From NCBI GenBank assembly GCA_041657885.1, contig JBBABB010000001.1, positions 1,094 through 65,093 on the forward strand: a stretch of DNA of 64,000 bases, read 5' to 3'. Each line of letters opens with the position of its first letter. The first letter of the stretch is position 1. Source of the DNA: Minisyncoccota bacterium (lineage in GTDB: Bacteria; Patescibacteriota; Minisyncoccia; Phycocordibacterales; UBA9973). Position numbers and translations under genes: made by a program. Under the pieces are notes generated by a model. That model was not told where the DNA came from. It worked only from the letters and a program-made list of their open reading frames with translations, and did not search any database. Of this stretch, positions 6,902-64,000 are shown in pieces.

Positions 6902-6929
6902 TACTTACAACTGAATAGTTCGATCAAGA

Positions 6930-7367
6930 GTGGTGGTAGAGAATTGGCTCGATGACCCCACAGCAACCTGCTTCGGTAAGGTGCTAAATCCAACCAGACA
7001 CGAAAGTGTCAGGAAAGATGTGTTTGTGCCTAGTCCGCACAAAAACTCTTTCCTCTTTATTAGAGGAATTTTTTATTTTATGAAGAAAATACCAGAAGGT
7101 TTAGTTAGGTGTGAAGTATGTGGAGAGTATAAAGGTGAGGTAAAAGAGAAAGACTTAAATTGGGGCGACTCTTGTTTTTACAAAGCAGAAGTAGAAAAGA
7201 GTGAAGAATACCTCTCTGTGTCTTGTCTTTGCGACGGCATCTTATGTCATAAGTGTAAGAAAAATAAAATTCATAGGCCTATATCAAATTCTTATGATGA
7301 GATTGATAATGACATTGGTCATTGGCCGTGGTTCACCGGAATGATGCCATGTAAAGAGTGTAAATAA
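6930..7367 (+). CDS. Small cysteine-rich zinc-ribbon protein; likely real start at ATG ~7080 (MKKIPEGL...)
   Basis: CEVCG...SCLCDGILCHKCKK...PCKECK gives three CxxC pairs. The upstream 150 nt of the track ORF looks like a structured 5' UTR rather than coding sequence. Confidence 0.4.
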   Translation: MVVENWLDDPTATCFGKVLNPTRHESVRKDVFVPSPHKNSFLFIRGIFYFMKKIPEGLVRCEVCGEYKGEVKEKDLNWGDSCFYKAEVEKSEEYLSVSCLCDGILCHKCKKNKIHRPISNSYDEIDNDIGHWPWFTGMMPCKECK

Positions 7368-10119: not shown

Positions 10120-11034
10120 GTGATGGACAAAGAAAAAATTCAGAAAGAAATAGAAGAACTTGAGGCACAAACGGCGCAAGGGAATTTTTGGGATGATAAA
10201 ATTTCTGCACAAGCGACAATCAAACGGATTGCATTTTTGAAAGATGAAATTCTAGGAAATCAAAAATATGACAAAGGGAATTGCATACTTTCAATTCTTT
10301 CAGGCGCTGGGGGTGATGATGCCGAAGATTTTTCGGCGATGTTGCTTCGAATGTATACAAAATATTTTGAGAGAAAAGGTTGGTCTTGGGAGGTAATCCA
10401 TGAAAATAAAAATGACAACGATGGATATCGCAATGTTTCTGTTGAAGTTTCTTCTCCCCCTGCGAAGGGGGAGTGGCCGAAGGTCGAGGGGGTCTATGGC
10501 ACTTTAAAAAATGAATCAGGTGTACATCGATTAGTTCGAATATCTCCATTTAATGCGAATGCCAAAAGGCACACTTCTTTTTCTCTCGTTGAAGTGATTC
10601 CAGAATTTGCGAAAGATGATAGCGCCATAGAAATCCCCCCAAATGACCTTCGGATTGAGCTTTCAAAGTCAGGTGGCCCCGGTGGGCAAAATGTAAACAA
10701 ACGCGAGACCGCTGTCAGGGTAGTCCATTTGCCAACCAATCTGTCTGTTCATGTAACATCAGAGCGTTCTCAAGAACAAAACAAAGAAAAAGCCATTGAA
10801 ATGCTAAAAGGTAAACTTTTCAAGAAAAGAGAAGATGATAAAAAGAGAGAAAAAGACGGAATGTCCATCTCAAAGACGACAGATATAGAATGGGGAAGTC
10901 AAATTCGCTCTTATGTCCTTCATCCATATAAAATGGTCAAAGACCACCGCACGGGAGTTGAAATTAATAATGTTGACTCTGTTCTTTTGGATGGTCAGAT
11001 AGATGAATTTATTGAAACAGAACGCAATTTGTGA
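10120..11034 (+). CDS. prfB: Peptide chain release factor 2, with a short N-domain and no programmed frameshift
   Basis: SPF tripeptide, GGQ motif (GGPGGQNVNK) and GVHRLVRISPF. The N-terminal region is contiguous in a single frame. Confidence 0.85.
   Translation: MMDKEKIQKEIEELEAQTAQGNFWDDKISAQATIKRIAFLKDEILGNQKYDKGNCILSILSGAGGDDAEDFSAMLLRMYTKYFERKGWSWEVIHENKNDNDGYRNVSVEVSSPPAKGEWPKVEGVYGTLKNESGVHRLVRISPFNANAKRHTSFSLVEVIPEFAKDDSAIEIPPNDLRIELSKSGGPGGQNVNKRETAVRVVHLPTNLSVHVTSERSQEQNKEKAIEMLKGKLFKKREDDKKREKDGMSISKTTDIEWGSQIRSYVLHPYKMVKDHRTGVEINNVDSVLLDGQIDEFIETERNL
10450..10490 (+). repeat. GC-rich palindromic element (CTCCCCC-TGCGAA-GGGGGAG) inserted in-frame within prfB
   Basis: It encodes SSPPAKGEWPKVE between the conserved VEV and GVYGTLK..GVHRLVR segments. 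The hairpin core is 10454-10473. Confidence 0.6.
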
Positions 11035-11728: not shown

Positions 11729-12659
11729 TACGCCTATGTTTTTTATTAAATTAAAAAGAATAATAGTTTCAGGTTATCGTAATTTTAAACGCAGTGGTTT
11801 TACTTCTGTCGCCAGTATTCTTGTCATGACCATAACTCTTTTTGTTGTCACATCTCTTATATTTATACAGGCCGCACTAAATTCTTCTCTCAATGATATA
11901 AAAGAAAAAGTTGATGTAACTGTTTATTTTGTTTCAGATACTCCAGAGTCCTCTATTAAAAATATTGAAGGAGCGTTAAAAAATCTGCCGGAAGTTAGAG
12001 ATGTAACTTATACTTCCCAAGATGATGCCTTAATAAAATTTAAAGAGAAACACTCAAATGATTATCTAACACTTCAAGCTCTTGATGAATTAGACTCAAA
12101 TCCACTAGGTGCGTCTCTTAATGTTAAAGCAAAAGACCCTTCTCAATATGAGAATATTGCCAAATATTTTGAGAGCGAAGATGCTCTTTCAAAAGGGGCT
12201 TTAACCATTATTGACAAAATTGATTATCACCAGAATAAGATTGTTATAGATAGACTTACTTCTATTATTAATGGAGCCAAAAAACTTGGTTTTGCTGTCT
12301 CTCTTATTCTTATTTTAATTTCTCTTCTTATTACATTTAATACCATCCGACTTATTATTTATATGTCTCGTGAAGAAATAAGTGTTATGAAGCTTGTGGG
12401 TGCTGAAGGCAGATATATTCGTGGACCGTTTATTGTTTCAGGTGTCCTTGTCGGTATTGTCGCTTCTCTTCTTACTGTTTTAATCTTTTTCCCTGTATCT
12501 ATTTGGTTGGGCAATCAAATGACGGATTTCGTTGGGATTAATTTATACACATACTTCAAATCAAATTTCTTCCAGTTGTTTATTATTATGCTTGGGTCTG
12601 GCGTGATTATTGGAAGTATTTCCAGTATCTTTGCTATTCACCGATACTTACGAAAGTAA
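11700..12659 (+). CDS. ftsX: Cell-division permease FtsX
   Basis: It follows ftsE. It has 4 predicted TM segments and an FtsX-like extracellular domain. The likely start is ~11735. Confidence 0.7.
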   Translation: MIKMVNICYNTPMFFIKLKRIIVSGYRNFKRSGFTSVASILVMTITLFVVTSLIFIQAALNSSLNDIKEKVDVTVYFVSDTPESSIKNIEGALKNLPEVRDVTYTSQDDALIKFKEKHSNDYLTLQALDELDSNPLGASLNVKAKDPSQYENIAKYFESEDALSKGALTIIDKIDYHQNKIVIDRLTSIINGAKKLGFAVSLILILISLLITFNTIRLIIYMSREEISVMKLVGAEGRYIRGPFIVSGVLVGIVASLLTVLIFFPVSIWLGNQMTDFVGINLYTYFKSNFFQLFIIMLGSGVIIGSISSIFAIHRYLRK

Positions 12660-28861: not shown

Positions 28862-29338
28862 TTATTTGTATGGTTTTTCTAATTTGAAAGTTTTAATACA
28901 CTTATCTAATTTAATTTCCTTAATATAATCTTTAAATTCTTTTGGCATAGGAGATGGTCCCACCCAAACACTTTTTTGAATCATAATGTAATTAAATTTT
29001 TTCAAATGCCATCTCAACCATTCCCTATGAGCTTTCTTCTCTGTTGGTACATCAAACATCACCAATAGAGTTTTATCTTTGGAAATATTTTCTGGTCGAT
29101 CGAATTGTTTTAATGAATCAAATTTTCTTTTCACATATTCTTTCCCATATTTTGATAAAACTATTCCCGCCAATTCTTTTTCAATTAAACCTCTTTTCCT
29201 CAATCTACTTATAGTGTTATACATGACATCTTTTTTGTATTTCTTAAAACGGGGGATTCCAAAAAGATTTACCCTAACTCCTTTGTAGTTAAGTTCGGTA
29301 TTCCACAACTCTTCTAATAGTTCACTTACAATAGACAT
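28862..29338 (-). CDS. Small winged-HTH plus Cas2/VapD-like-pattern protein (paralog A)
   Basis: N-terminal YNTISRLRKRGLIEK (wHTH-like) and C-terminal LLVMFDVPTEKKAHREWLRWHLKKFNYIMIQKSVWVG. The ORF at 40491 is a paralog. The gene is bracketed by REP-like palindromes. Confidence 0.35.
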   Translation of the reverse strand: MSIVSELLEELWNTELNYKGVRVNLFGIPRFKKYKKDVMYNTISRLRKRGLIEKELAGIVLSKYGKEYVKRKFDSLKQFDRPENISKDKTLLVMFDVPTEKKAHREWLRWHLKKFNYIMIQKSVWVGPSPMPKEFKDYIKEIKLDKCIKTFKLEKPYK

Positions 29339-31184: not shown

Positions 31185-32975
31185 TTGAGGGGTGGACTCT
31201 GTAATCAGAGGACGGGGTGGAAAATCATTATGAAAGAAAAGATACAAAAATTAATACAAGAGATATTGAAAAAACTCGATATAGATGAGTGTGATTTTTC
31301 AGTTGAACATCCAGATGATTTTAAAAATGGAGATTATTCGACAAATGTGGCGATGGTTTGTGCTAAGCAATTGAAAACTAATTCAAAGGAATTTGCAGAG
31401 AAAATAGTTATAGAATTAAGGGGTTTACCGAAGCAAGGCTTCGGTGGAATTGAAAAAATGGAAGTTGCCGGTCTTGGATTTATAAATTTCTATTTATCAC
31501 GAGAATTTTTTACAGATAGTATCAAAGAGATTTTGGAACAAAAAGAAGATTGGGGAAAGAATAATTTATTAAAAGGGAAGAAAATTATGGTTGAATATAC
31601 AGACCCGAATCCTTTTAAACCCTTTCATATAGGGCATTTAATGGCGAATACAATAGGTGAATCAATATCTCGAATTGTGGAATTCTCTGGCGCAAAAACC
31701 ATAAGAGCGAATTATCAGGGTGATGTAGGTCCCCATGTGGCAAAAGCAATATACGGGCTTATGAAATTTGGAATGCCTGATTTATCGAAGTCTATATCAG
31801 AACAAGCTCAATATATTGGTGAATGTTATTCAAAGGGAAGTAATCTATATGATACAGATGAAAATGCAAAAAAAGAAATAGATGAAATAAATAAAAAAAT
31901 TTACGACAAGACAAATCCCGATATAAATAAAATTTATGATTGGGGGAAAAAGGCAACTCTTGATGCTTTTGAAGAAATTTATAAAATTCTGGGAACAAAA
32001 TTTGATTACTATTTCTTTGAAAGTGAAATGACAATAATAGGTGAAAAAATTGTTAGGGAAAATATTGGAAAAGTTTTTGATGAATCAGATGGCGCAATAA
32101 TATTTCACGGTGAAAACTATGATAAAAAACTTCACACTCGTGTTTTTATAAATTCTCAAGGATTGCCGACTTATGAGACAAAGGAAATTGGTCTCACCGT
32201 TACAAAGTTTGAAAAAGAAAACCCTGATATTTCAATAATAACAACAGCGATAGAGCAAGCTGAATATATGAAAGTTGTCCAGAAAGCAATTTCTATAATG
32301 CATCCAAATCTTGAATCAAGAATGAAACATATTACGCACGGCATGATGCGCCTTTCAACTGGGAAGATGTCTTCAAGAAAAGGTAATGTCATTACCGGTG
32401 AGTCACTTTTACGTGATTCGATGGATGTTGTATATGAAAAAGTCAAAAATCGTGAACTAACAGATGAAGAAAAAAAGAAAATTTCTGAGATTGTTGGAGT
32501 TGCGGCGCTCAAATATTCAATACTTCGTTCATCACTTGGTAGTGATATTGTTTATGATTTTGAAAAATCAATTTCTTTTGATGGAGATTCAGGTCCATAT
32601 TTACAATATACTGCTGTTCGCGCAAATTCTATTTTGTTGAAAGCAGATAGTTTTAAAAAAGTAGGAGTTGGAATTCCAGAAGAAATAACTGAATTAGAAA
32701 AAATATTATATCAATTTCCTGAAGTTGTAGAACAATCATATAATCTTCTTGAACCTCACCACATCGCCACTTATCTCACCCAACTTGCAAGTGCATTTAA
32801 TACTTTCTATGGAAACACAAAAATATTGCCTGCCCGCCCTCACGATGGTTCGGGAGCAAGTGGGGAGAGTGGCAATAAATACATGAGCTATCATCTTGAA
32901 CTCGTAAAAGCGTTTTATCAAACCATGAAGAATGGTCTCTGGCTACTAGGTATTGAAACACCAGAAAAAATGTAA
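31185..32975 (+). CDS. argS: Arginyl-tRNA synthetase
   Basis: HIGH motif (PFHIGHLM) and anticodon-binding DALK-like C-terminus. The likely start is ~31230 (MKEKIQKL). Confidence 0.9.
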   Translation: MRGGLCNQRTGWKIIMKEKIQKLIQEILKKLDIDECDFSVEHPDDFKNGDYSTNVAMVCAKQLKTNSKEFAEKIVIELRGLPKQGFGGIEKMEVAGLGFINFYLSREFFTDSIKEILEQKEDWGKNNLLKGKKIMVEYTDPNPFKPFHIGHLMANTIGESISRIVEFSGAKTIRANYQGDVGPHVAKAIYGLMKFGMPDLSKSISEQAQYIGECYSKGSNLYDTDENAKKEIDEINKKIYDKTNPDINKIYDWGKKATLDAFEEIYKILGTKFDYYFFESEMTIIGEKIVRENIGKVFDESDGAIIFHGENYDKKLHTRVFINSQGLPTYETKEIGLTVTKFEKENPDISIITTAIEQAEYMKVVQKAISIMHPNLESRMKHITHGMMRLSTGKMSSRKGNVITGESLLRDSMDVVYEKVKNRELTDEEKKKISEIVGVAALKYSILRSSLGSDIVYDFEKSISFDGDSGPYLQYTAVRANSILLKADSFKKVGVGIPEEITELEKILYQFPEVVEQSYNLLEPHHIATYLTQLASAFNTFYGNTKILPARPHDGSGASGESGNKYMSYHLELVKAFYQTMKNGLWLLGIETPEKM

Positions 32976-32983
32976 GCTAAAAA

Positions 32984-33011
32984 GTAGTAAGTAGTAAGTA
33001 GTAAGTAGTAT
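32984..33011. repeat. GTAGTAA heptamer tandem array (about 4 copies) abutting the start codon of the next gene
   Basis: gtagtaa gtagtaa gtagtaa gtagtATG. Confidence 0.7.
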
Positions 33012-34746
33012 GGAATATAAATCAGAAAATCGAATATGCCAAAACTGCAAAAATGACTTCACTATTGAGCCAGATGATTTTTTGTTTTATGAAAAAATTA
33101 AAGTTCCCCCGCCTACATTTTGTCCAAATTGTAGACGAATCAGAAGATGGGTGTGGAGGAATGAAAGAACTTACTATAAAAGAAAGTGTAATGTGCCTAA
33201 CCATTCTGAGGAAATTGTCAGTCTTTATAGTCCAGAGCAACCATTTTTTGTGTATGACCAAAAATATTGGTGGTCTGACCAATGGGACCCCTTAGATTAC
33301 GGTGTGGATTATGATTTTTCGGAATCATTTTTTAAACAATTTTCGAAACTACTTAAGAATATTCCATTGATAACTTTATCAAACACCGAGGCTATAAATA
33401 GTGAATATTGCAGTTCTACTGCTTGGAATAAGGATTGTTACTTAATAAGTGCAAGTGGCTGGAACGAAAAAGTTTTATACTCTAATAGACTAGCAAAAAA
33501 TAAAGATTCGATGGATTTATATATAGCTGATAATAACGAATTGTGTTATGAGGATTTATATTGCAATAAATGTTACCAAACTTGTTACTCTAATCAGTGT
33601 GAAGGATGTAGTGATTCAATGTTTTTACACAATTGTCGTAATTGCTCCAATTGTTTTGGATGTACTAATTTAATGGGGCAAGATCATTGTTTTTTCAATA
33701 AGAAATTACCTAAAGAAGAATATAAAAGAAAAATTGCACAGCTTAATCTAGGAAGTTCAAAAGAAATTCAAAAGATAAAAAGAAAATTTTACGAAGAAAT
33801 ATATCTTAATACAATAAATAAATACTCCGACCAAATAAATTGTATCAATTCAACTGGTGACCACTTGCGTAACACAAAAAATTGCCACGAGTGTTATGAT
33901 TTTCCCGGTGATAATAATGAAGATTGTAAATTTGTAGATTGGGGGGGTTTTAAATCAAAAGATATATATGATACTGGGCCAGGTGTCGGCTGGAATACTG
34001 AACTTGTCTATGAGGGGGTAGATAATAACGACGACTCAAATATGATAGGTTGTATCGTCTGTTATAATTCAAATAATTTGTTTTATTGTATGAATTGTCA
34101 TGGTTCTTCAAATTTATTTGCTTGCATAGGGCTTCGTAATAAAAAGTACTGTATTCTTAATAAACAATATACAAAAGAAGAGTACGATGAAATAATTTTA
34201 AAAATAAAAAAACAAATGGAAGAAATTCCTTATATTGATAGAAGAGGAATGATTTATAAATATGGAGAATTTTTTCCATCAGAATTATCGCCATTTGCTT
34301 ACAATGAAACAGTAGCCCAAGAATATAACCCATTAACCAAGGAGCAAGCTCTAGAACAAGGTTACAAATGGAAAGACAAAGAAGAAAGAAACTATCAAAT
34401 AGACATTAAGAACGAAGACATTCCTGATAATATTAAAGATATAACTGATGATATCATCGGTAAAGTCATTGAATGTGGTCATAAAGGAGAATGTAACCAA
34501 CAATGTACCGAAGCCTTCAAGATAATTCCCGAAGAACTTCAATTCTACCAACGGATGAACCTTCCTCTACCTCGTCTCTGTCCTAATTGTCGTCATTATG
34601 AACGACTCTCCCAACGTAATCCTCTTAAACTCTGGCACCGTTCCTGTATGAAAGAGGGATGTAATAATGAATTTGAAACTAGCTACTCACCAGATCGACC
34701 TGAGATAGTATATTGTGAACGTTGTTATCAGAATGAAGTGTATTAA
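33010..34746 (+). CDS. Large cysteine-rich protein with duplicated N- and C-terminal zinc ribbons and internal Cys-rich repeats (unknown function)
   Basis: N-terminal FLFYEKIKVPPPTFCPNCRRIRR resembles C-terminal LQFYQRMNLPLPRLCPNCRHYER. The interior has many Cys clusters. Confidence 0.5.
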   Translation: MEYKSENRICQNCKNDFTIEPDDFLFYEKIKVPPPTFCPNCRRIRRWVWRNERTYYKRKCNVPNHSEEIVSLYSPEQPFFVYDQKYWWSDQWDPLDYGVDYDFSESFFKQFSKLLKNIPLITLSNTEAINSEYCSSTAWNKDCYLISASGWNEKVLYSNRLAKNKDSMDLYIADNNELCYEDLYCNKCYQTCYSNQCEGCSDSMFLHNCRNCSNCFGCTNLMGQDHCFFNKKLPKEEYKRKIAQLNLGSSKEIQKIKRKFYEEIYLNTINKYSDQINCINSTGDHLRNTKNCHECYDFPGDNNEDCKFVDWGGFKSKDIYDTGPGVGWNTELVYEGVDNNDDSNMIGCIVCYNSNNLFYCMNCHGSSNLFACIGLRNKKYCILNKQYTKEEYDEIILKIKKQMEEIPYIDRRGMIYKYGEFFPSELSPFAYNETVAQEYNPLTKEQALEQGYKWKDKEERNYQIDIKNEDIPDNIKDITDDIIGKVIECGHKGECNQQCTEAFKIIPEELQFYQRMNLPLPRLCPNCRHYERLSQRNPLKLWHRSCMKEGCNNEFETSYSPDRPEIVYCERCYQNEVY

Positions 34747-35141
34747 GAATAAGTAGTATGTAGAATGTAGAAAGTAATATTAAAGCAATTAAGAATTAAA
34801 ATGAAAGAAGAAAAAAGGGCTCAGCACATCAATGTTGAGCCCATAACCTTCGAGGGGTAGAGTAAGTGGTGTTTGTTTTTAAACCCCAGAAAGGTTTATT
34901 CCTCGACATCAGTAGACCGTTTTTTACGGCCGTCGGGGTTTGCCTTGGGCAGTGTCTGCAAGGAACAGATTTAATGTTATATATTCCCCAAGGAGATATA
35001 TAGAACAAAAAGATTGCCCTAATAAGGCTGAACTATTATGTTCTGCTCGCATACCGTTAGGCGCATCTCAAAAGGGCAATCTATTTAATATATTACATAA
35101 ACCTATGAAAAAAGCAATATTTCTGTTAAAATCATCCATAT

Positions 35142-38100
35142 ATGGATAAGAACAACGAAAAGAGCCCACCCGCCTCCGCACAAGGCTATGGCGAGGCAAA
35201 GTCAGCGTTACCCGCCTCTGCAGAACGCTCCGGCGTGGCAAAGCGAGAAGAGGCAATTTTACAATTCTGGAAAGAAAATAAAATTTTTGAAAAAAGTTTA
35301 GAAAAAGAAGCACCAAAAGGAAAGTATGTTTTTTATGATGGTCCTCCTTTTGCTTCTGGTCTTCCTCATTATGGACATATACTTGGCAGTACGGCTAAAG
35401 ATGTAATTGGCAGATATAAAACTATGTGCGGATTTAATGTTCCACGACGTTGGGGTTGGGATTGTCATGGTTTACCAATTGAAAATATTGTTGAAAAAGA
35501 TTTGGGAATTTCTGGAAAGAAAGCCATTGAAGCACTGGGAATTGATAAATTCACCGAACATGCGCGCAGTAAAGTTTTAACTTATGTAAGCGAATGGAAA
35601 AAGACGATAGATCGTATGGGGCGCTGGGTAGATTTTAATAATTCTTACAAAACTATGGACAACACTTTCATTGAAAGTGTTTGGTGGGCTCTTGGTGAGA
35701 TGAATAAAAAAGAATTACTTTATGAAGGAGTCCGAGTGCTTGCTTATTGTCCTCGTTGTGAGACACCGATTGCAAATTCTGAAATTGCCATGGATAATAG
35801 TTATAAAGATATTACAGATATTTCTGTATATGTGAAATTCCAACTTACAGAGGCTTCACATTCTCAAATTTCTTCGTGCTTTACCCTAAAGGGCTCCGAC
35901 GCGACGAAGAAATTAGAAAATGTTTTGACTATTTATCTATTGGCTTGGACGACGACTCCGTGGACGCTTCCCGGGAACACTGCTATTGCTATCAATAAAA
36001 AATTAAATTATGTATTAGTAAAAAATAAAATAGAGACAGGAGAAGAAATATTAATAGTGGCAAAAGAACTATTTGAAGGATTAAAAAATAAATTTAACAA
36101 TCCTGAGATAGTAAAAGAAGTGAAAGGCAGTGAACTTATAGGTCTTTCTTATGAACCATTATTCTCATATTATAAAAATAAAGACGTGGCAAAAAATCCA
36201 AATATTTGGAAAATTTGGCATGCCGATTTCGTAACGCTTGATAAGGGAACGGGTGTTGCTCATCAGGCTCCAGCTTTTGGAGAGGATGATATGGACCTTG
36301 CCAAGAAAAATAATGTTCCATTTATTCGTCATGTTGAACCGAATGGTGATTTCTCAAAAGAGATTACCGATTTCCCAAATGTAAAAGTCAAACCCAAAGA
36401 AGACCATCAATCTACAGATATCCTTATTATCAAACACCTTGCCCATGCTGGGCTTCTGTTTGCCAAAGAAAAAATTATTCACTCATATCCGTATTGTTAT
36501 CGTTGCGAGACACCGCTTCTTTACTATGCGTTGCCATCTTGGTTTGTGAATATTCAAAAAGTTAAAAATGATTTAGTAAAAAAAGGTGAAGAGATGAATT
36601 GGATTCCAGCGCATTTGAAAGAAGGACGTTTCAAAAATACAATGGAAAGTGCGCCTGATTGGACCATATCTAGGAATCGTTATTGGGCAAGCCCACTTCC
36701 TATTTGGAAAAATAAAGAGGGTAGGGTGATGGTAGTAAATTCACTTGAAGATTTAAAAATAAAAACAAAAAAATCAGGGAATAAATATTTTGTGATGAGG
36801 CATGGAGAATCAGAAGGAAATCTCAATGGACTTGTCAGTTCTTCTTATGAAGAAGATGATAATTTAACGGAAAATGGAAAAAGACAAGCTGAAGAAGCAT
36901 CTATAGGGTTAAAAAATAAAAAAATTGATTTAATTTTTTCTTCTCCCATTAAAAGAACCAAAGAAACAGCTGAAATTATGTGTTCCGCATTAGGTTTAGA
37001 TAAAAAAAATATTATTATAGATGATAGAATTCGTGAAATTTCTATTCCTGATTATGAAGGAAAAACATGGACAGAGTTTCGTAAAGATTTTCCTAATACA
37101 ATAGAAAACTTTTATCATATTAAAGAAAACAATGAATCATACAATGATGTTAAAAAAAGAGTTATGAATTTTCTTTATGAAATAGAAGAAAAATATAAAG
37201 ATAAAAATATTCTGATTGTTACTCATGCAGGTCCAATATGGCTTGCAATTTCAGGGGCTATGGGTTTTGATGCTAAAGAATCACTGAATATAAAGAATAT
37301 AGATACTTCTGGTAAAAATGCGGAATATCGAGAATTAGATTTTACTTTTATTCCTCACAATGAAAATTATGAGCTTGATTTACATAGGCCATATATTGAT
37401 TCTGTAACACTTGTTGATGAAAAAGGGGAAGAATATAAAAGAATTCCAGAGGTTGTGGATTGTTGGTTTGAGTCTGGCTCAATGCCATTCGCGCAAGACC
37501 ATTATCCATTTGAAAATAAAAATTGGCAAAAAGAAAATTTCCCAGCAGGATTTGTGGCTGAATATATAGCTCAAACAAGGACATGGTTTTACTATACTCA
37601 CACTATTTCAACAATACTTTTTGGGCATGCTCCATTTGAAAATGTGGTAACGACAGGAACTATTTTGGCAGAGGATGGGAGTAAAATGTCAAAATCAAAA
37701 AATAATTATCCAGACCCTTGGCTTTTGTTTGATAAATATGGAGTGGATGCTCTTCGTTTTTATCTGATGTCTAGTACTTTAATGAAAGGGGAAGATGTAA
37801 ATTTTTCTGAAAAATTAGTTCAAGAAGTTGCCAGTAAAATAGTTAACCGTTTTGACAATGTCATGGCTTTTTATGAATTGTATAGGAGTAAAGAAGTAGA
37901 AAGTAGTAAGGAAAAAATAGTAAGTAAAAATATTTTAGACCAGTGGATAATCGCGCGAACTTCACAATTTATTAATGAAGTGAAAGACAGTATGGAAATT
38001 TATGATATGGCACAAGCTGCAAAACCTTTTGATTTATTTGTTGAAGATCTCTCAACTTGGTATTTGCGTCGTTCGCGTGAAAGAATAAAAAATGGAGATG

Positions 38101-38789
38101 AAAATGCAAAACAGACACTATATTTTGTTTTAAAAACCGCCATTCAACCCTTCGCACCATTTATGCCTTTTATTGCAGAAGATATTTGGCAGAAATTAAA
38201 ATTTAATTCTGATCCAGAGAGTGTCCACTTAACAAACTTTTTCTTAGATGTTGAAACTAAAAAAATTGATAATAAAATTATCGAAGAAATGCAAAAAGCG
38301 CGTGAGGTTGTGACGCTTGGATTACAAGCTCGGCAGAAAGCGGGGATTCCGGTGAGACAACCGTTAAAAGAATTACGAATTACGAATTACGAATTACGAA
38401 AAGAATACGAGGAGATAATAAAAGATGAATTAAATGTAAAAGAAATTAAAATAATTAAAGGCGAAGAAGAGAAAGTTGAATTGGATACAAATATTACAGA
38501 AGAATTAAAGAAAGAAGGGCAATATCGCGAGCTTGTTCGAGCCATACAAGATATTCGTAAGAAAAATGGATTAAATCCAAATGATATTGTAACTCTCCAG
38601 ATTTCTGCTTCAACAGAAGGACAAGAATTGATAAATAAATTTAAAAAAGAATTAATGAAGGCAGTTAGTGCAAAAGAAATACAAATTAAAGAAAATAATG
38701 GGGTACCTGCCCGCAATACTTCTGGTACAGCTGATGCAGGCGGGGAAATAAAAATTGATGAATTAATATTTATAATTAGTCTTATATAA
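35142..38789 (+). CDS. ileS: Isoleucyl-tRNA synthetase carrying an embedded histidine-phosphatase-superfamily domain
   Basis: Class I motifs HYGH and KMSKS, plus WTISRNRYW and DCWFESGS. A ~190-aa insert between these two blocks (~36760-37340) carries RHGESEGN and THAG motifs. Confidence 0.9.
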   Translation: MDKNNEKSPPASAQGYGEAKSALPASAERSGVAKREEAILQFWKENKIFEKSLEKEAPKGKYVFYDGPPFASGLPHYGHILGSTAKDVIGRYKTMCGFNVPRRWGWDCHGLPIENIVEKDLGISGKKAIEALGIDKFTEHARSKVLTYVSEWKKTIDRMGRWVDFNNSYKTMDNTFIESVWWALGEMNKKELLYEGVRVLAYCPRCETPIANSEIAMDNSYKDITDISVYVKFQLTEASHSQISSCFTLKGSDATKKLENVLTIYLLAWTTTPWTLPGNTAIAINKKLNYVLVKNKIETGEEILIVAKELFEGLKNKFNNPEIVKEVKGSELIGLSYEPLFSYYKNKDVAKNPNIWKIWHADFVTLDKGTGVAHQAPAFGEDDMDLAKKNNVPFIRHVEPNGDFSKEITDFPNVKVKPKEDHQSTDILIIKHLAHAGLLFAKEKIIHSYPYCYRCETPLLYYALPSWFVNIQKVKNDLVKKGEEMNWIPAHLKEGRFKNTMESAPDWTISRNRYWASPLPIWKNKEGRVMVVNSLEDLKIKTKKSGNKYFVMRHGESEGNLNGLVSSSYEEDDNLTENGKRQAEEASIGLKNKKIDLIFSSPIKRTKETAEIMCSALGLDKKNIIIDDRIREISIPDYEGKTWTEFRKDFPNTIENFYHIKENNESYNDVKKRVMNFLYEIEEKYKDKNILIVTHAGPIWLAISGAMGFDAKESLNIKNIDTSGKNAEYRELDFTFIPHNENYELDLHRPYIDSVTLVDEKGEEYKRIPEVVDCWFESGSMPFAQDHYPFENKNWQKENFPAGFVAEYIAQTRTWFYYTHTISTILFGHAPFENVVTTGTILAEDGSKMSKSKNNYPDPWLLFDKYGVDALRFYLMSSTLMKGEDVNFSEKLVQEVASKIVNRFDNVMAFYELYRSKEVESSKEKIVSKNILDQWIIARTSQFINEVKDSMEIYDMAQAAKPFDLFVEDLSTWYLRRSRERIKNGDENAKQTLYFVLKTAIQPFAPFMPFIAEDIWQKLKFNSDPESVHLTNFFLDVETKKIDNKIIEEMQKAREVVTLGLQARQKAGIPVRQPLKELRITNYELRKEYEEIIKDELNVKEIKIIKGEEEKVELDTNITEELKKEGQYRELVRAIQDIRKKNGLNPNDIVTLQISASTEGQELINKFKKELMKAVSAKEIQIKENNGVPARNTSGTADAGGEIKIDELIFIISLI
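38371..38398 (+). repeat. GAATTAC heptamer x4 in-frame inside ileS
   Basis: gaattacgaattacgaattacgaattac encodes ELRITNYEL. Confidence 0.6.
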
Positions 38790-42087: not shown

Positions 42088-43974
42088 ATGCCCGAAGATA
42101 GTAAAAATAAAATTGAAGATGTAAAAAGACACCTCTATGACCCAAATGATAAATCAATGACCCACCAAAGAGAGGGTATATTACACCAGATAAGTCACAA
42201 TGTACCGCTTGAATGGAAAGAAGATAGTCAAACTAAATCGGAAGATAATATGAAGAATAAATTTAAAAAACCACCAGTATCAATATTTAAAAAGTTTTTT
42301 GTTGTCTCAATTATTTTTTTTATAGGAGCTTTGGGTTTTGCTTTCTATAAATTTTCTAATAATGATGTATCCGTATCAAGCGATAAGATAGATATAGAGG
42401 TTATTGGTAATTCTTTTACTAAAGGTGGAGATGAGTTGCCTCTTCAAATTGAAATTACTAATAATAATAATGCTAGTCTTGAACTCGCAAACCTTGTTAT
42501 AGAATATCCCAAAGGGGCAGATGATAGTGTTAATGATGTTGTTCGTCTACCTCGAGATGCTATAGGCACAGTAAAGCCCGGGGAAAGTATTATTAGAAAT
42601 ATTAAAGTTAAACTTTTTGGAGAAGAGAAATCAATTCGTAATATTAAAGTTAGCTTAGAATATCACCCCGAGGGTTCTAATGCAATTTTTACTAAAGACA
42701 AATTATATCCTGTCACAATAAGTTTGGCGCCGCTGTCTCTCATCATAGTGGCTCCTACTAGTATCTCTTCTGACCAGCCTATTTCATTTGAGATAACAGC
42801 TACATTAAATACTTCTTTACCAAACGAGAATACAATGTTGCAAGTGTCATACCCTAATAATTTCGTTTTTGATAGTGCTATACCAGCTCCTTCCTTAGGA
42901 AATTCTACTTGGGACCTTTCATCTATTACGGTCACAAACCCAGTAACCGTTGAAGTTAAAGGGCGTCTCATAGGTGAGGATGGCGATGAACAAGTATTTC
43001 ATGTTTATGCGGGGACAACCAATCAAACTAACCGGTCAGTAATAAATGTAATTTACAGTTCTATTTTGCAGAAAATTTTAATAACAAAGCCATTCCTTGA
43101 AGCGCATATTTTAGTTAATGGTCAAGACCAGACAGAGTACGCTGTTTCGGGAGGAACAACAGTTAACGGAGAGATAGCTTGGGCAAATAATTTACCAACA
43201 CGAATAACAGATGGACAAATTATTGTAAGTTTATCTGGTAATGTTTTTGATAAGAGTATGGTTAATTCAACTAATGGTTTTTATGATTCAGCGAATAATC
43301 AAATTATATGGGACAAGAATTCAGTCTCTGAATTATCAGAAATAAATCCCGGGGAAAAAGGAACAGCTTCATTTAGCTTTAAAATACCTTCTCTCGTTGG
43401 TTTATTAAATACTATTAAAGACCCACAAGTTTCTATTAAGGTCAGTATCAAAGGGAGACAACCACAACTTGGTTCTACTTATACTGATGTGAATAATTTT
43501 TCTGAAAAAGTGGTAAAGGTATTGTCTGATTTTCAGATTGCTTCATCTGCAACTTATCTTTTGGGAAGCATACCACCAAAAGCAGAAACTGAAACAAAGT
43601 ATACGGTTACTTGGACGCTTTCAAACTCTGCAAACAATATATCGGGAGCTCAAGCACGTTCTACATTACCAATATATATAAACTGGACTGGTGTTACAAC
43701 TGGAGAAAATGAAAATGTGACCTATAATGAAGTTTCTCGTGAAGTAATCTGGAATATAGGTTCGGTTCTTCCCAATACAGGGATAGATTCAAATCGCGAA
43801 GTTTCTTTTATTATTTCTCTTAAACCATCTTTATCTCAAGTAGGTAGTGTCCCTCAACTTATGAAAGAGATTTATCTTTCAGGGATGGATTCATTTGCTA
43901 ATGCTTTAATTAAAAATACTCGTGGCGTCATTACAACCTCATCAATTGGTGGTGATGGAAGGGTTACACAGTAA
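42088..43974 (+). CDS. Membrane-anchored cell-surface protein (unknown function)
   Basis: Single TM after ~75 aa, then a long beta-rich extracellular region. Confidence 0.4.
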   Translation: MPEDSKNKIEDVKRHLYDPNDKSMTHQREGILHQISHNVPLEWKEDSQTKSEDNMKNKFKKPPVSIFKKFFVVSIIFFIGALGFAFYKFSNNDVSVSSDKIDIEVIGNSFTKGGDELPLQIEITNNNNASLELANLVIEYPKGADDSVNDVVRLPRDAIGTVKPGESIIRNIKVKLFGEEKSIRNIKVSLEYHPEGSNAIFTKDKLYPVTISLAPLSLIIVAPTSISSDQPISFEITATLNTSLPNENTMLQVSYPNNFVFDSAIPAPSLGNSTWDLSSITVTNPVTVEVKGRLIGEDGDEQVFHVYAGTTNQTNRSVINVIYSSILQKILITKPFLEAHILVNGQDQTEYAVSGGTTVNGEIAWANNLPTRITDGQIIVSLSGNVFDKSMVNSTNGFYDSANNQIIWDKNSVSELSEINPGEKGTASFSFKIPSLVGLLNTIKDPQVSIKVSIKGRQPQLGSTYTDVNNFSEKVVKVLSDFQIASSATYLLGSIPPKAETETKYTVTWTLSNSANNISGAQARSTLPIYINWTGVTTGENENVTYNEVSREVIWNIGSVLPNTGIDSNREVSFIISLKPSLSQVGSVPQLMKEIYLSGMDSFANALIKNTRGVITTSSIGGDGRVTQ

Positions 43975-44032
43975 TTAAGAATTAAGAATTAAGAATTAAG
44001 AATTAAGAATTAAGAATTAAGAATTAAGAATT
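43973..44032. repeat. AATTAAG heptamer tandem array (7 full copies plus 1 partial) filling the intergenic spacer upstream of glyQS
   Basis: Exact 7-nt period; every unit contains TAA. Confidence 0.8.
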
Positions 44033-44035
44033 AAA

Positions 44036-52565: not shown

Positions 52566-54233
52566 ATGAAAAAAATATTATTAGGATTGTTTGTTTTGAG
52601 TTTTTTGGTGGTTGGTTATAATGCCTATGCTGAAAGTGCTGTTGATTGCCCCGCAGATCAAAATTACAGCTCTCTAACAGGAGAGCTTTGTGGTTGTTCA
52701 CATAATGAAGTTTATAGTTCAACAACAGGACAGACATGTCCAGTTATTGTTCCTTCTATTAAGGTCACATCTCCTAACAGTGGCTTTGAAGCGATAGAAT
52801 CAGGTCAAAAAGTAGAAATAAGATGGGAATCAAACGTTTCAATAAATGCTTTGGTAGACGTTTACGTTTCAGACAGGATTCATACAGGAGAAGTAGTAAG
52901 GACCAATAATAATGGTGCTCATGGTTTAATATATACTCTCGATAACAGTTTAACTCCGGGTTCAAATTATAGAGCTTATGTTTCTCTCGTTTCCGAAAAC
53001 CCAGTTAGTGATTCGTCAGATAATCCATTTATCATTAAACCCGCAAATTCTGGTTGTTTAAATGGCGAAGTTTTTAGTTCTACCACAGGAGCAATTTGTC
53101 CTACTACTCCTTATAAAATTACTACTACGACAGATTTAACTCCTCGTATTTCATATTGGCAAGGTAAGGTGAATCAACATGTAAGTGTAAGTGAGGGCAT
53201 GTGGCAAACAGATTCGGATGGAGTTTCGGGAGCTGAAATCAACAAGCTCACATATTGTAAAAAGTTTTATCCAAATACGACGAGTGTAGTTGAATACAAG
53301 AAGGAATATATAAATGCTTGGCATGATAGGGGTAATGTAAATGATTATTTAGGTCTGAACATGTCTTATCAATGCGTGGGAATAGATGCTGGTTGTTCAA
53401 ATGGCCAAGTTTATAGTTCAACAACAGGGCAAAGATGTCTTGTAAATACAAATCCAATAATTTCAGGAATTTCTGGTCCACAAACATTAGCCATAACTCA
53501 ATCTGGAACATGGAAGGTTACAGCTTCAAGTTCAAGTGGAGGAAATCTAACATATTCTGTTGTTTGGGGAGATGAAGCTGTTCAAACAAATTATTCCACT
53601 GCAACAAGGCAAATACCTCAGCAATCAGCAACATTTACTCACAGTTATTCACAAATAGGAACATATACACCAACATTTACTGTTACAAATAGTAATGGTG
53701 GAAGTGCAAAGACAAGTATCACAGTAAAAGTAAATAATTTAACAAATACTTGCCCTGTTGTATTGACAGATTGTATAGTTGGTTATTCTGCTGTACTTTC
53801 GGGTAAAGATTCCAATGGTTGTAATTCTTGGTCCTGCAAAAAAGATTCTGAATCAGATAATGGATGTCATTTAGGTAACATATATAGTGTTACGACTGGC
53901 AAAATGTGTCCTATCAAAGATGATGGGTGTCTTCTCGGTTATAACTATAGTCCAATAACAGGAAAAGCATGTGTTGAATATTTTATTTATCCATGTACCT
54001 CTTCATCAGAATCTAATTGTTTTAATCCAACTACTTCCATAACTAGAACCCTCAAGGTTGGTACGACAGGGGAGGATGTTAAAACATTACAGTCATTCCT
54101 TGGGATAAACGCAGATGGAGTATTCGGTCGCGGAACGCAAGCCAGTGTTATAAACTGGCAAACATCAAAGGGTCTCACTGCTGATGGTGCATTTGGAAGT
54201 ATGAGTCGTGCAAAAGCAGGATTTACTCAATAA
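52566..54233 (+). CDS. Secreted protein with about 6 cysteine-containing YSSTTGQxCP repeats, an Ig/PKD-like segment and a C-terminal peptidoglycan-binding domain
   Basis: Signal peptide, repeats of C..G.VYSSTTGQ.CP, and a PG_binding_1-like C-terminus (GEDVKTLQSFLG...DGVFG). Confidence 0.6.
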   Translation: MKKILLGLFVLSFLVVGYNAYAESAVDCPADQNYSSLTGELCGCSHNEVYSSTTGQTCPVIVPSIKVTSPNSGFEAIESGQKVEIRWESNVSINALVDVYVSDRIHTGEVVRTNNNGAHGLIYTLDNSLTPGSNYRAYVSLVSENPVSDSSDNPFIIKPANSGCLNGEVFSSTTGAICPTTPYKITTTTDLTPRISYWQGKVNQHVSVSEGMWQTDSDGVSGAEINKLTYCKKFYPNTTSVVEYKKEYINAWHDRGNVNDYLGLNMSYQCVGIDAGCSNGQVYSSTTGQRCLVNTNPIISGISGPQTLAITQSGTWKVTASSSSGGNLTYSVVWGDEAVQTNYSTATRQIPQQSATFTHSYSQIGTYTPTFTVTNSNGGSAKTSITVKVNNLTNTCPVVLTDCIVGYSAVLSGKDSNGCNSWSCKKDSESDNGCHLGNIYSVTTGKMCPIKDDGCLLGYNYSPITGKACVEYFIYPCTSSSESNCFNPTTSITRTLKVGTTGEDVKTLQSFLGINADGVFGRGTQASVINWQTSKGLTADGAFGSMSRAKAGFTQ

Positions 54234-54234
54234 T

Positions 54235-54272
54235 TAAGAATTAAAAATTAATAATTAAAAATTAAATGCAAA
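54235..54272. repeat. Degenerate AATTAAN heptamer array (about 5 copies)
   Basis: aattaag aattaaa aattaat aattaaa aattaaa. Confidence 0.6.
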
Positions 54273-63342: not shown

Positions 63343-64000
63343 ATGTTTAGAAATAAAAATATTTATCTTGATTATGCAAGTGCTACGCCGATAGATAAAA
63401 GTGTGGCACGGAAAATGGCTCTTTATGAGTGTAATTTTTTTACTAATTCAAGTGCGATACACCAAGAAGGGGTTAAAGTAAGAAATGTTATAGAGGAATC
63501 AAGGAATAAAATTGCGAAGCTTATAAATGCTCATAATGATGAGATTATTTTTACAGGGAGTGGAACAGAAAGCATTGCCCTCGCTTTGCTCGGGCTAATT
63601 AAGAATTATGAATTAAGAATTAAGAATGAAAATTCCGAATTCGAATATAAAAAGCCACATATAATTACTACAAAAATAGAACATCCTGCAGTACTTGAAA
63701 ATTGTAAAATGCTCGAAGAGAGCGGGGAAGCTGAAGTCACTTATATTTCTGTTGATAAATCTGGAATTGTAAATCTCGAAGAATTAAAAGATTCTTTGAA
63801 AGAAAATACGGTTTTAGTTTCGGTAATGTATGCGAACAATGAAATTGGGACGGTCCAACCGATACAGGAGATTGCAAAAATAATTCGGCATTTTAAGAAG
63901 AATTACCTTACCCCAGCCCTCTCCAAAGGAGAGGGAGCTCCTTCCCCTTTGGGGAAGGCGGGGGATGGGGTTTTCCCTGTTTTCCACACAGATGCATGTC
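63343..64000 (+). CDS. Cysteine desulfurase (IscS/NifS-like), 5' part, with two in-frame low-complexity inserts
   Basis: IYLDYASATP, FTGSGTESI and ..HTDA motifs. Inserted segments are IKNYELRIKNENSEFEYKK and LTPALSKGEGAPSPLGKAGDG. Confidence 0.75.
   Translation, partial: MFRNKNIYLDYASATPIDKSVARKMALYECNFFTNSSAIHQEGVKVRNVIEESRNKIAKLINAHNDEIIFTGSGTESIALALLGLIKNYELRIKNENSEFEYKKPHIITTKIEHPAVLENCKMLEESGEAEVTYISVDKSGIVNLEELKDSLKENTVLVSVMYANNEIGTVQPIQEIAKIIRHFKKNYLTPALSKGEGAPSPLGKAGDGVFPVFHTDAC

Follow-up and report, generated by a model that had tools for sequence, protein, structure and literature searches.

Gene X lies between argS and ileS in the window, by which the whole analysed stretch is meant (64,000 nucleotides of contig JBBABB010000001.1, assembly GCA_041657885.1, Minisyncoccota bacterium), and it encodes a cysteine-rich protein of 578 amino acids (aa). 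The tentatively preferred reading of the results is that protein X is a native Patescibacteria family protein, which would be built as a double solenoid capped by zinc fingers and may serve as an adaptor or cargo of orphan ATPases. The original prediction made for the window had pointed to this Cys-rich open reading frame (ORF) between argS and ileS; the ORF was present, and all the peptide strings quoted for it were found. Protein X was 100% identical to MFA5773088.1 ('hypothetical protein WC908_00215'), which comes from a Candidatus Paceibacterota metagenome-assembled genome (MAG). The coordinates of the features are given in Table 1.

The family of protein X was large, old and paralogous, and it was confined to Patescibacteria-type genomes. 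At least 7,980 matches were found in a 90%-clustered protein database. The best 120 of these were ~540–615 aa long and 51–72% identical to X, with a query coverage of 98–100% except for two shorter entries (93–95%). All of these 120 were unnamed or 'hypothetical', bar one stray Joint Genome Institute (JGI) name, and they came from Paceibacterota, Nomurabacteria, Liptonbacteria and similar MAGs. When 1.84 billion 50%-cluster representatives were searched with a profile, 4,824 matched, 2,137 of them at E ≤ 1e-30, and more than 565 matching loci were found in contigs taken at one genome per species. The record names were Jorgensen-, Giovannoni-, Kaiser-, Staskawicz-, Sungii-, Niyogi-, Lipton- and Nomurabacteria. 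The taxon labels of the MAGs were uneven in quality, and many automated 'uncultured Saccharibacteria' labels were suspected to be unreliable. All named matches were Patescibacteria-type MAGs except two contigs of 30–35% GC, which were labelled Burkholderiales and Gammaproteobacteria and were probably mis-binned; the Burkholderiales-labelled contig (L040) had the usual family gene order.

Family copies were counted at 89 loci, and 49 of these held at least two. The arrays reached 8 copies in L010 and 9 copies in about 15 kb in L070, and one MAG held 9 copies (L024 and L081 together). The conservation of the family was evaluated on an alignment of 165 family sequences, for which the median pairwise identity was 44% and 33 non-Cys positions were at least 95% conserved. 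Each member carried 22–45 Cys. The nearest relative of X was 72% identical, compared with 81% for the adjacent arginyl-tRNA synthetase (ArgRS). With sub-family clustering at 52% identity, most copies fell into a single group, which was uninformative.

Protein X was composed of a finger module, repeat A, repeat B, a linker and a second finger module, in this order. The terminal modules had been described in the original prediction as duplicated, and residues 11–90 did align with residues 497–576 at 33% identity (E = 6e-18). A second duplication, which the prediction had missed, was found in the interior, where residues ~122–260 aligned with residues ~285–412 at 26% identity (BLASTP, E = 2e-12). 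In the N-terminal module, C10, C13, C38 and C41 were conserved in 98% of the 165 sequences. Finger 2 of the window copy was degenerate (C60, P63, D83, Y86). In the family, C63, C83 and C86 were retained or lost together (phi 0.96–1.0), with the full Cys quartet in 64 sequences and C60 alone in 70. In the C-terminal module, site 3 was formed by C489 or C495 with C499, C524 and C527, the last three of which were also retained or lost together (phi 0.97–1.0), and site 4 (C546, C551, C569 and C572) was 99% conserved. The terminal Cys quartets appear to behave like Cys4 zinc sites, and by this pattern of residues the window copy carries three intact Cys4 sites and a degenerate fourth. Neither a signal peptide nor a membrane segment was found in X, for which the highest Kyte–Doolittle mean over 19 residues was 0.99. 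The lack of an export signal, together with the zinc-type sites, suggests that X is located in the cytoplasm.

The Cys residues of repeat A were confined to register positions 1, 4, 7 and 10 of a 12-residue repeat. The Cys autocorrelation was 0.35–0.58 at lags of 3, 6, 9 and 12 and negative elsewhere, and the autocorrelation of conservation was 0.53 at a lag of 12. The core positions 1, 4, 7 and 10 alternated among Cys, Ser, Val, Ile, Leu, Ala and Asn, and many unpaired combinations of Cys occurred; the turn C209–C212–C215–C218 was near-constantly all-Cys (109 of 165 sequences). Because of the register at every third residue, the exchange with Ser, Val and Leu and the unpaired combinations, the core Cys are read as inward-facing residues of a solenoid and not as zinc knuckles or obligate disulfides. 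Obligate Cys4 sites in the core were rejected, as the core Cys varied singly and exchanged with those residues. For the most part, the interior C..C clusters would not be zinc ribbons but the inward-facing positions of the 12-residue repeat, and the whole pattern fits a beta-solenoid core of this period.

The full-length AlphaFold2 (AF2) model had a predicted local distance difference test score (pLDDT) of 81 and a predicted template modelling score (pTM) of 0.80, with high confidence for the fingers, the helices and the linker. In the AF2 model of the core only, short strands recurred about every 12 residues. No recognisable characterised family was found for X. Pfam returned no family at E ≤ 1 and NCBIfam no match, PADLOC and PHROGs assigned no family, and a sequence search of the Protein Data Bank (PDB) gave noise for the single protein and nothing for the family profile. 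With Foldseek, the full model had no match in the PDB, and in BFVD it matched solely zinc-ribbon fragments, the best of which was a 'putative zinc-ribbon domain protein' (E = 0.027, 68 columns). The core model returned from the PDB insignificant matches to left-handed beta-helices alone (E ≥ 1.9, template modelling (TM) score ≤ 0.13). Nothing specific came out of the literature search on the family, the finger families and the heptamer repeats of these bacteria.

The ends of X resembled the 'probable treble clef' fingers zf_Tbcl (PF13451) and zf_Tbcl_2 (PF23477), with which they shared the pattern CxxC-(24)-CPxCR and a second Cys4 finger. Paralogs and relatives matched the zf_Tbcl profiles at aa 5–45, 51–85 and 530–562, nearly always with scores under the curated threshold, and X itself was below the reporting level and its fingers make up less than one third of the protein. 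Nine of 49 close relatives matched zf_Tbcl (best E = 8e-4); paralogs scored 18.6 bits against the zf_Tbcl cut-off of 24, and one zf_Tbcl_2 match reached 27.1 against 27 bits. The antifreeze protein of Tenebrio molitor is a 12-residue beta-helix with the consensus TCTxSxxCxxAx, in which the residues at every third position face inward. The core of X has the same period of 12 residues, Cys, Ser or small residues at every third, inward position and a run of Asn at one position. However, X has no signal peptide, no disulfide pairing and no sequence or Foldseek match to an antifreeze protein, and its chain would contain two solenoids with helical caps, between terminal zinc fingers. The likeness is an architectural analogy, not membership. 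Left-handed beta-helices (LpxD, LpxA, gamma-carbonic anhydrase) were the sole kind of PDB structure returned for the core model, all at insignificant scores; the period of X is 12 and not 18, and there was no Hexapep match in Pfam. No homologue of the core or the linker was found among characterised proteins. The family was rated as outside the known kinds, and its novelty as that of an uncharacterised family with a probable fold, not of a demonstrated system.

The gene neighbours of the family were explored in 85 non-redundant loci, in which ORFs were called de novo and clustered by single linkage. The sole strongly enriched neighbour was a soluble P-loop ATPase of the VirD4/TrwB/TraG/HerA type, with Pfam matches to TrwB_AAD_bind, T4SS-DNA_transf and TraG-D_C. 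This ATPase directly adjoined a family gene on the same strand upstream in 15 loci and downstream in 8. Of the 149 direct neighbours with a length of 120 aa or more, 24 were this ATPase. The other 112 direct neighbours had no dominant family. The adjacency recurred across several gene arrangements and differently named lineages. Under the assumption of ~2 genes per genome (PMC12102498), the estimated probability that the ATPase adjoins by chance was far below 1% for each neighbour. The ATPase occurred in two forms of ~500 aa and ~700 aa, and the long form carried zf_Tbcl_2 (E = 6.6e-11). Two arrangements were recurrent, i.e., DnaK–ATPase(long)–X(–X)–ATPase(short)–DnaJ(–X) and SecD–SecF–sigma-r4/HARE-HTH protein–membrane protein–ATPase–X. 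The latter string, as SecD–SecF–Sigma70_r4+HARE-HTH protein–DUF8128-like protein–(170-aa membrane protein)–ATPase, was observed in L055, L057, L060, L026, L073, L008, L074 and L094. As a separate observation, a 158-aa PaaX_M/Cas2-like protein (E = 3.9e-13) is encoded in the window at 28862–29338 on the minus strand; members of the same small protein family were found no more than 8 kb from genes of the X family in 5 further loci, and also in L092.

The ATPase and the recurrent membrane protein, which had a weak match to DUF8128, matched the C-terminal and N-terminal parts of PHROG 5156, respectively, and by this match the two look like a split coupling protein. A total of 5,713 VirD4-type homologues have been found in 2,918 Patescibacteria genomes, just 148 of them near virB4, and exaptation for other functions has been suggested for them (PMC12102498). 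The family genes resembled partners or substrates of type IV coupling proteins (T4CPs) in that they adjoin VirD4/TrwB-like ATPases and share a finger type with the long form. However, X has no relaxase motif, no genes of a type IV secretion system (T4SS) were seen alongside, and the ATPases are orphans that, unlike T4CPs, have no membrane domain of their own. Because the ATPase was the sole strongly enriched neighbour and its long form carries the same finger type, X may work with orphan VirD4/TrwB-type ATPases; taken by itself, this partnership is possible but doubtful. In the proposed mechanism, X would dock through its terminal fingers onto the ATPase or onto a ligand common to both, its rigid double solenoid would be either the surface of an adaptor or the cargo itself, and different paralogs would confer different specificities.

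Several results weighed against the preferred reading. No adjacent ATPase was present in 59 of the 85 loci (~70%), and no ATPase, DnaK/J or CutA1 was found near gene X in the window. The counts were obtained from loci that are phylogenetically non-independent and with our own ORF calls and single-linkage clusters. The match between the end module of the family and the finger of the ATPase was weak and came from one protein (E = 5e-4). Both repeats were modelled at a pLDDT of only 55–75, and the solenoid reading rests mainly on the periodicity of the sequence. Protein X was mildly acidic (isoelectric point (pI) of 5.4, family median 6.3), which disfavours general nucleic-acid binding by the whole protein. 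In addition, the GTAG leader in front of the gene (see below) was shared by different paralogs, which is not explained by simple array decay.

A more far-reaching version holds that the family, the orphan ATPases and a separate membrane partner form an undescribed, Patescibacteria-specific transport or remodelling system, that the core is a new Cys-lined cytoplasmic solenoid fold and that the stop-rich heptamers in front of many of these and other genes are a functional leader for frame-independent termination and re-start, in a genome with few Shine–Dalgarno sites; this version is unlikely. The genomes of Patescibacteria are ~1 Mb or smaller, yet some carry nine family genes with a total of ~15 kb. 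The size of the family, its constraint and its restriction to one radiation probably make it a core part of Patescibacteria biology. The thousands of orphan VirD4-type ATPases, whose role is open according to PMC12102498, gain a first candidate partner. A Cys-lined 12-residue solenoid with zinc-finger caps would, if true, be a new protein architecture, and the lineage-wide heptamer arrays at junctions and in genes are a separate, apparently undescribed genome feature.

Among the rival explanations, the one that survived best, although it is itself quite unlikely, is that X is a zinc or thiol stress protein, i.e., a redox- or metal-sensing holdase or a metal buffer that acts with DnaK, DnaJ and GrpE in the manner of Hsp33 or DnaJ. 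Family genes lay inside the dnaK–dnaJ interval in 11 loci and after grpE in 3, CutA1 was a direct neighbour in 12 loci of varied arrangement, and DsbB adjoined or was one gene off in 3. The high Cys content of every member is in line with such a role, and X shares with the Cys-rich domain of DnaJ and with Hsp33 the possession of several Cys4 centres. However, the linkage to dnaK seemed to occur only in a single group of related genomes and never without the ATPases, and the core Cys exchange with Ser, Val and Leu, unlike those of a redox switch. Moreover, CxxCxGxG repeats are absent from X, Pfam matched it to neither DnaJ_CXXCXGXG nor Hsp33, its overall architecture is unrelated, and nine paralogs would be awkward for a buffer.

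Table 1. Features of gene X, its product and its flanks (positions in the window)
Feature	Position	Strand	Remarks
argS (arginine--tRNA ligase), upstream neighbour	31230–32975 (alternative start 31185)	+	Stop TAA 32973–32975
Upstream heptamer array	32982–33011	+	AAGTAGT/GTAGTAA, 4.1 copies; fills the argS–X spacer and overlaps the ATG
Coding sequence of Cys-rich protein X	33010–34746	+	578 aa, ATG start, 37 Cys
N-terminal module, aa 1–100	33010–33309	+	Finger 1 C10, C13, C38, C41; finger 2 degenerate
Putative core repeat A, aa 120–232	33367–33705	+	About 9 turns of the 12-residue repeat
Putative core repeat B, aa 285–386	33862–34167	+	Degenerate copy of A; retains C363, C372, C381, N384
Helical, highly conserved linker, aa 387–485	34168–34464	+	Motif YKYGEFFPxELSPFAYNET; pLDDT 86–96, best-modelled part
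C-terminal module, aa 486–578	34465–34743	+	Duplicates the N-terminal module; holds sites 3 and 4
Downstream degenerate heptamer array	34753–34780	+	GTAGTAT GTAGAAT GTAGAAA GTAATAT; 7 nt past the stop codon
Start context AATTAAG AATTAAA ATG with 19-codon ORF	34785–34860	+	AATTAAGAATTAAAATG; same context as ORF 44036
GC-rich hairpin	34817–34842	.	A-run before; U-run on the minus strand; opens a structured spacer of ~300 nt
ileS, downstream neighbour	35142–38789	+	His_Phos_1 domain inserted at aa 550–723

The product of argS matched arginine--tRNA ligase at 100% and contained the Pfam domains Arg_tRNA_synt_N, tRNA-synt_1d and DALR_1. Relatives with the argS slot were found through ArgRS at 71–81% identity, and they shared the conserved block SHMT (serine hydroxymethyltransferase)–NUDIX–thymidylate kinase–dUTPase–argS–[slot]–ileS(His_Phos)–NUDIX/hydrolase–RecO. 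The slot held one family gene in the window, none in L092, one in L090, three in L091 and at least five in L102. The slot copies of the relatives were 33–47% identical to X. They are read as old paralog types because their best matches, at 45–57%, were found in distant species. The orthologs of X (69–72%) sat behind other genes in six other genomes, with the contexts CutA1–X–X (L001), GrpE–X–CutA1 (L006), MnmA–X–thrS (L008), tRNA-synt_1b–X–tRNA-synt_2 (L093), MnmA–X–X–cysS (L094) and purine genes–X (L095). The variable slot and the orthologs elsewhere indicate that the slot is dynamic and that the gene is not a fixed syntenic element. Gene X is native, and the slot that it occupies behind argS contains, in this lineage, a family array ranging in size from 0 to at least 5 copies; the turnover of the slot probably took place through loss, rearrangement and paralog exchange.

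The original prediction had proposed that the gene arrived as a cassette, and in its explicit form this second rival is a unit of heptamers, gene and heptamers that moves by recombination at the repeats and was inserted between argS and ileS; it has only a small chance of being right. The GTAGNAN heptamer arrays were indeed located on either side of the gene, so that repeats of one family stand at both ends. The upstream array consisted of three GTAGTAA units and one GTAGTAT unit at 32984–33011, the last of which supplies the AT of the ATG; Tandem Repeats Finder (TRF) reported 4.1 copies with 100% matches at 32982–33010. The TAG and TAA stops in all three frames are supplied by this array. The downstream array was reported by TRF with 3.4 copies and 88% matches. 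A two-unit 13-mer (at most 2 mismatches) occurred 6 times in the window against 1.13 expected, a number reached in 0 of 100 shuffles, and 5 of the 6 occurrences flanked gene X. The bare motif GTAGNA was not enriched in the window (100 found, 82 expected).

The junction (GTAGNAN)n-ATGGAATAYAAATCAGAAAA, i.e., the leader with the first codons, was also found on family genes of differing paralog types behind four other upstream genes, namely CutA1, a YqgF-like gene, an unknown gene and another family copy (L001/L101, L096/L097, L098, L102). In L001, the same array runs up to the ATG of the ortholog, and in L096/L097, L098 and L102 it does so for other paralogs. Nucleotides 1–45 of X were 93% identical to the L102 paralog, the protein of which is 47% identical, and 78% identical to the true ortholog. 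This suggests either an exchange of 5' ends between paralogs or a selected start leader. In L096 (8817–8867) and in L098 (near the contig end), the GTAG-led family genes seemed to be frameshifted early (MEYKSEKKNTCPVLIF*), and they are either pseudogenes or assembly errors.

Tandem arrays were counted in the window and 92 related loci (1.27 Mb) if they had 4 or more copies with no more than 1 mismatch in each unit. The window contained 5 arrays of period 7 and none with periods of 8–12; in the 92 loci, period 7 accounted for 29 arrays, periods 5 and 6 for 6 and 2, respectively, and periods 8–11 for none. The period-7 arrays occurred at many unrelated gene junctions with short spacers, often abutting the next ATG, and within coding sequence too. 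The upstream arrays were checked on 166 family copies, and GTAG arrays preceded 3 of these alone; 5 of the 7 members of the ortholog group had none on either side, and L001 had a comparable TAGNNNN run after its ortholog. The heptamers are therefore not cassette borders, because they belong to the dominant class of microsatellites in the whole lineage, which is found at unrelated junctions and inside genes. The GTAG heptamers are more probably the usual stop-rich spacer or start leader of the lineage than the ends of a mobile element.

The resemblance of X to a mobile gene cassette, which lies in the repeats at both ends and in presence/absence variation, was further offset by the lack of a recombinase among the called neighbours in the window and the argS-slot relatives. 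The GC content of the gene X region (0.27–0.39) matched that of the flanks, and no family copies were found on 2.9 million viral contigs, phages and plasmids. A foreign origin was rejected by this native composition and the absence from these collections. Because the slots of the relatives hold family arrays, differential loss accounts for much of the variation. The variable slot and the shared leader are thus what stood of the cassette proposal; the arrays as borders, a composition differing from the genome and mobile copies or a recombinase did not.

Other period-7 arrays of the window lay at 43973–44034, 54232–54266, 63597–63627 and 38370–38400, and further loci with arrays included L013, L018, L026, L064, L070 and L088, with AATTAAG, AATTAAA, GAATTAC and others as units. 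The intergenic arrays carried TAA or TAG, which gives stops in all three frames. Of the arrays inside genes, the one in ileS reads ELRITNYELR, and in the array at 63597–63627, which lies in a NifS/IscS-like gene, one unit has TAT in place of TAA and the frame is kept open. No description of the heptamer arrays of this lineage was found in the literature search. A Shine–Dalgarno-like 4-mer was present at −20 to −4 in only 7 of 61 window ORFs, and in many of them a TATAAT-like box ended ~7–10 nt before the ATG. Widespread leaderless or Shine–Dalgarno-independent initiation is suggested.

A third explanation, with a slim chance, is that X is an exported, disulfide-stabilised beta-helix that is delivered to the surface or to a host by the VirD4-like ATPase and the membrane partner without a Sec signal. 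The adjacency of the ATPase and the split coupling-protein architecture are compatible with this, SecDF, DsbB and type IV pilus genes recurred nearby, and the Cys-lined 12-residue helix recalls the secreted antifreeze protein of Tenebrio. Surface and effector families also commonly form paralog arrays. However, neither of the expected export features, a signal peptide or a membrane segment, was found, the behaviour of the terminal Cys4 quartets is that of zinc sites, and the core Cys were not conserved as pairs. In addition, the conservation was far above the usual level of effectors, and most T4CP homologues of Patescibacteria are not beside a T4SS.

It is very improbable that X is a factor linked to translation or transfer RNA (tRNA), with fingers that bind RNA. 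The neighbours of the orthologs do include argS and ileS in the window, mnmA and thrS in L008, a tRNA-synt_1b and two tRNA-synt_2 genes in L093, and mnmA with cysS one gene off in L094, and the finger helices are Arg-rich. These 7 contexts are a small sample, however; X is acidic overall, and translation factors do not usually come in multi-copy arrays. For the family as a whole, a link to aminoacyl-tRNA synthetases was rejected, as it was confined to the ortholog group of X and no synthetase family was among the top 25 Pfam families of the 112 other direct neighbours. Equally improbable is a structural hetero-oligomer, in which the slowly evolving paralogs of equal length would be the subunits of one cytoplasmic assembly such as a solenoid polymer: the old paralogs do have a near-constant length of ~550–610 aa and many invariant aromatic and charged residues, and beta-solenoid proteins such as bactofilins polymerise, but the copy number varied from 1 to at least 9 between genomes and Foldseek gave no structural match.

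Downstream of gene X, the short ORF at 34785–34860 may be the stump or remnant of a lost gene start. The spacer between X and ileS (34790–35145) was GC-rich for this genome and strongly structured on both strands (z = −5.0 on the minus strand and −3.8 on the plus strand). The Rfam search of this spacer gave no match, and RNAalifold on four genomes gave no consensus structure, probably owing to poor alignment. Hairpins resembling that at 34817–34842 opened the same spacer before ileS in L090–L092. The spacer may represent a small RNA of the minus strand or a leader of ileS.

Further observations concern other genes. The His_Phos_1 domain inserted within the synthetase encoded by ileS was complete (E = 5.7e-39) and was kept in L090, L091 and L092. 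A T-box-like leader (GGTGGTACCACG, then a terminator) preceded ileS in L090 (~12100–12330) and L092 (~10150–10380), and it was absent in the window and L091. An S-adenosylmethionine (SAM) riboswitch, which is unrelated to gene X, was located in the window at 6918–7024 (56.1 bits).

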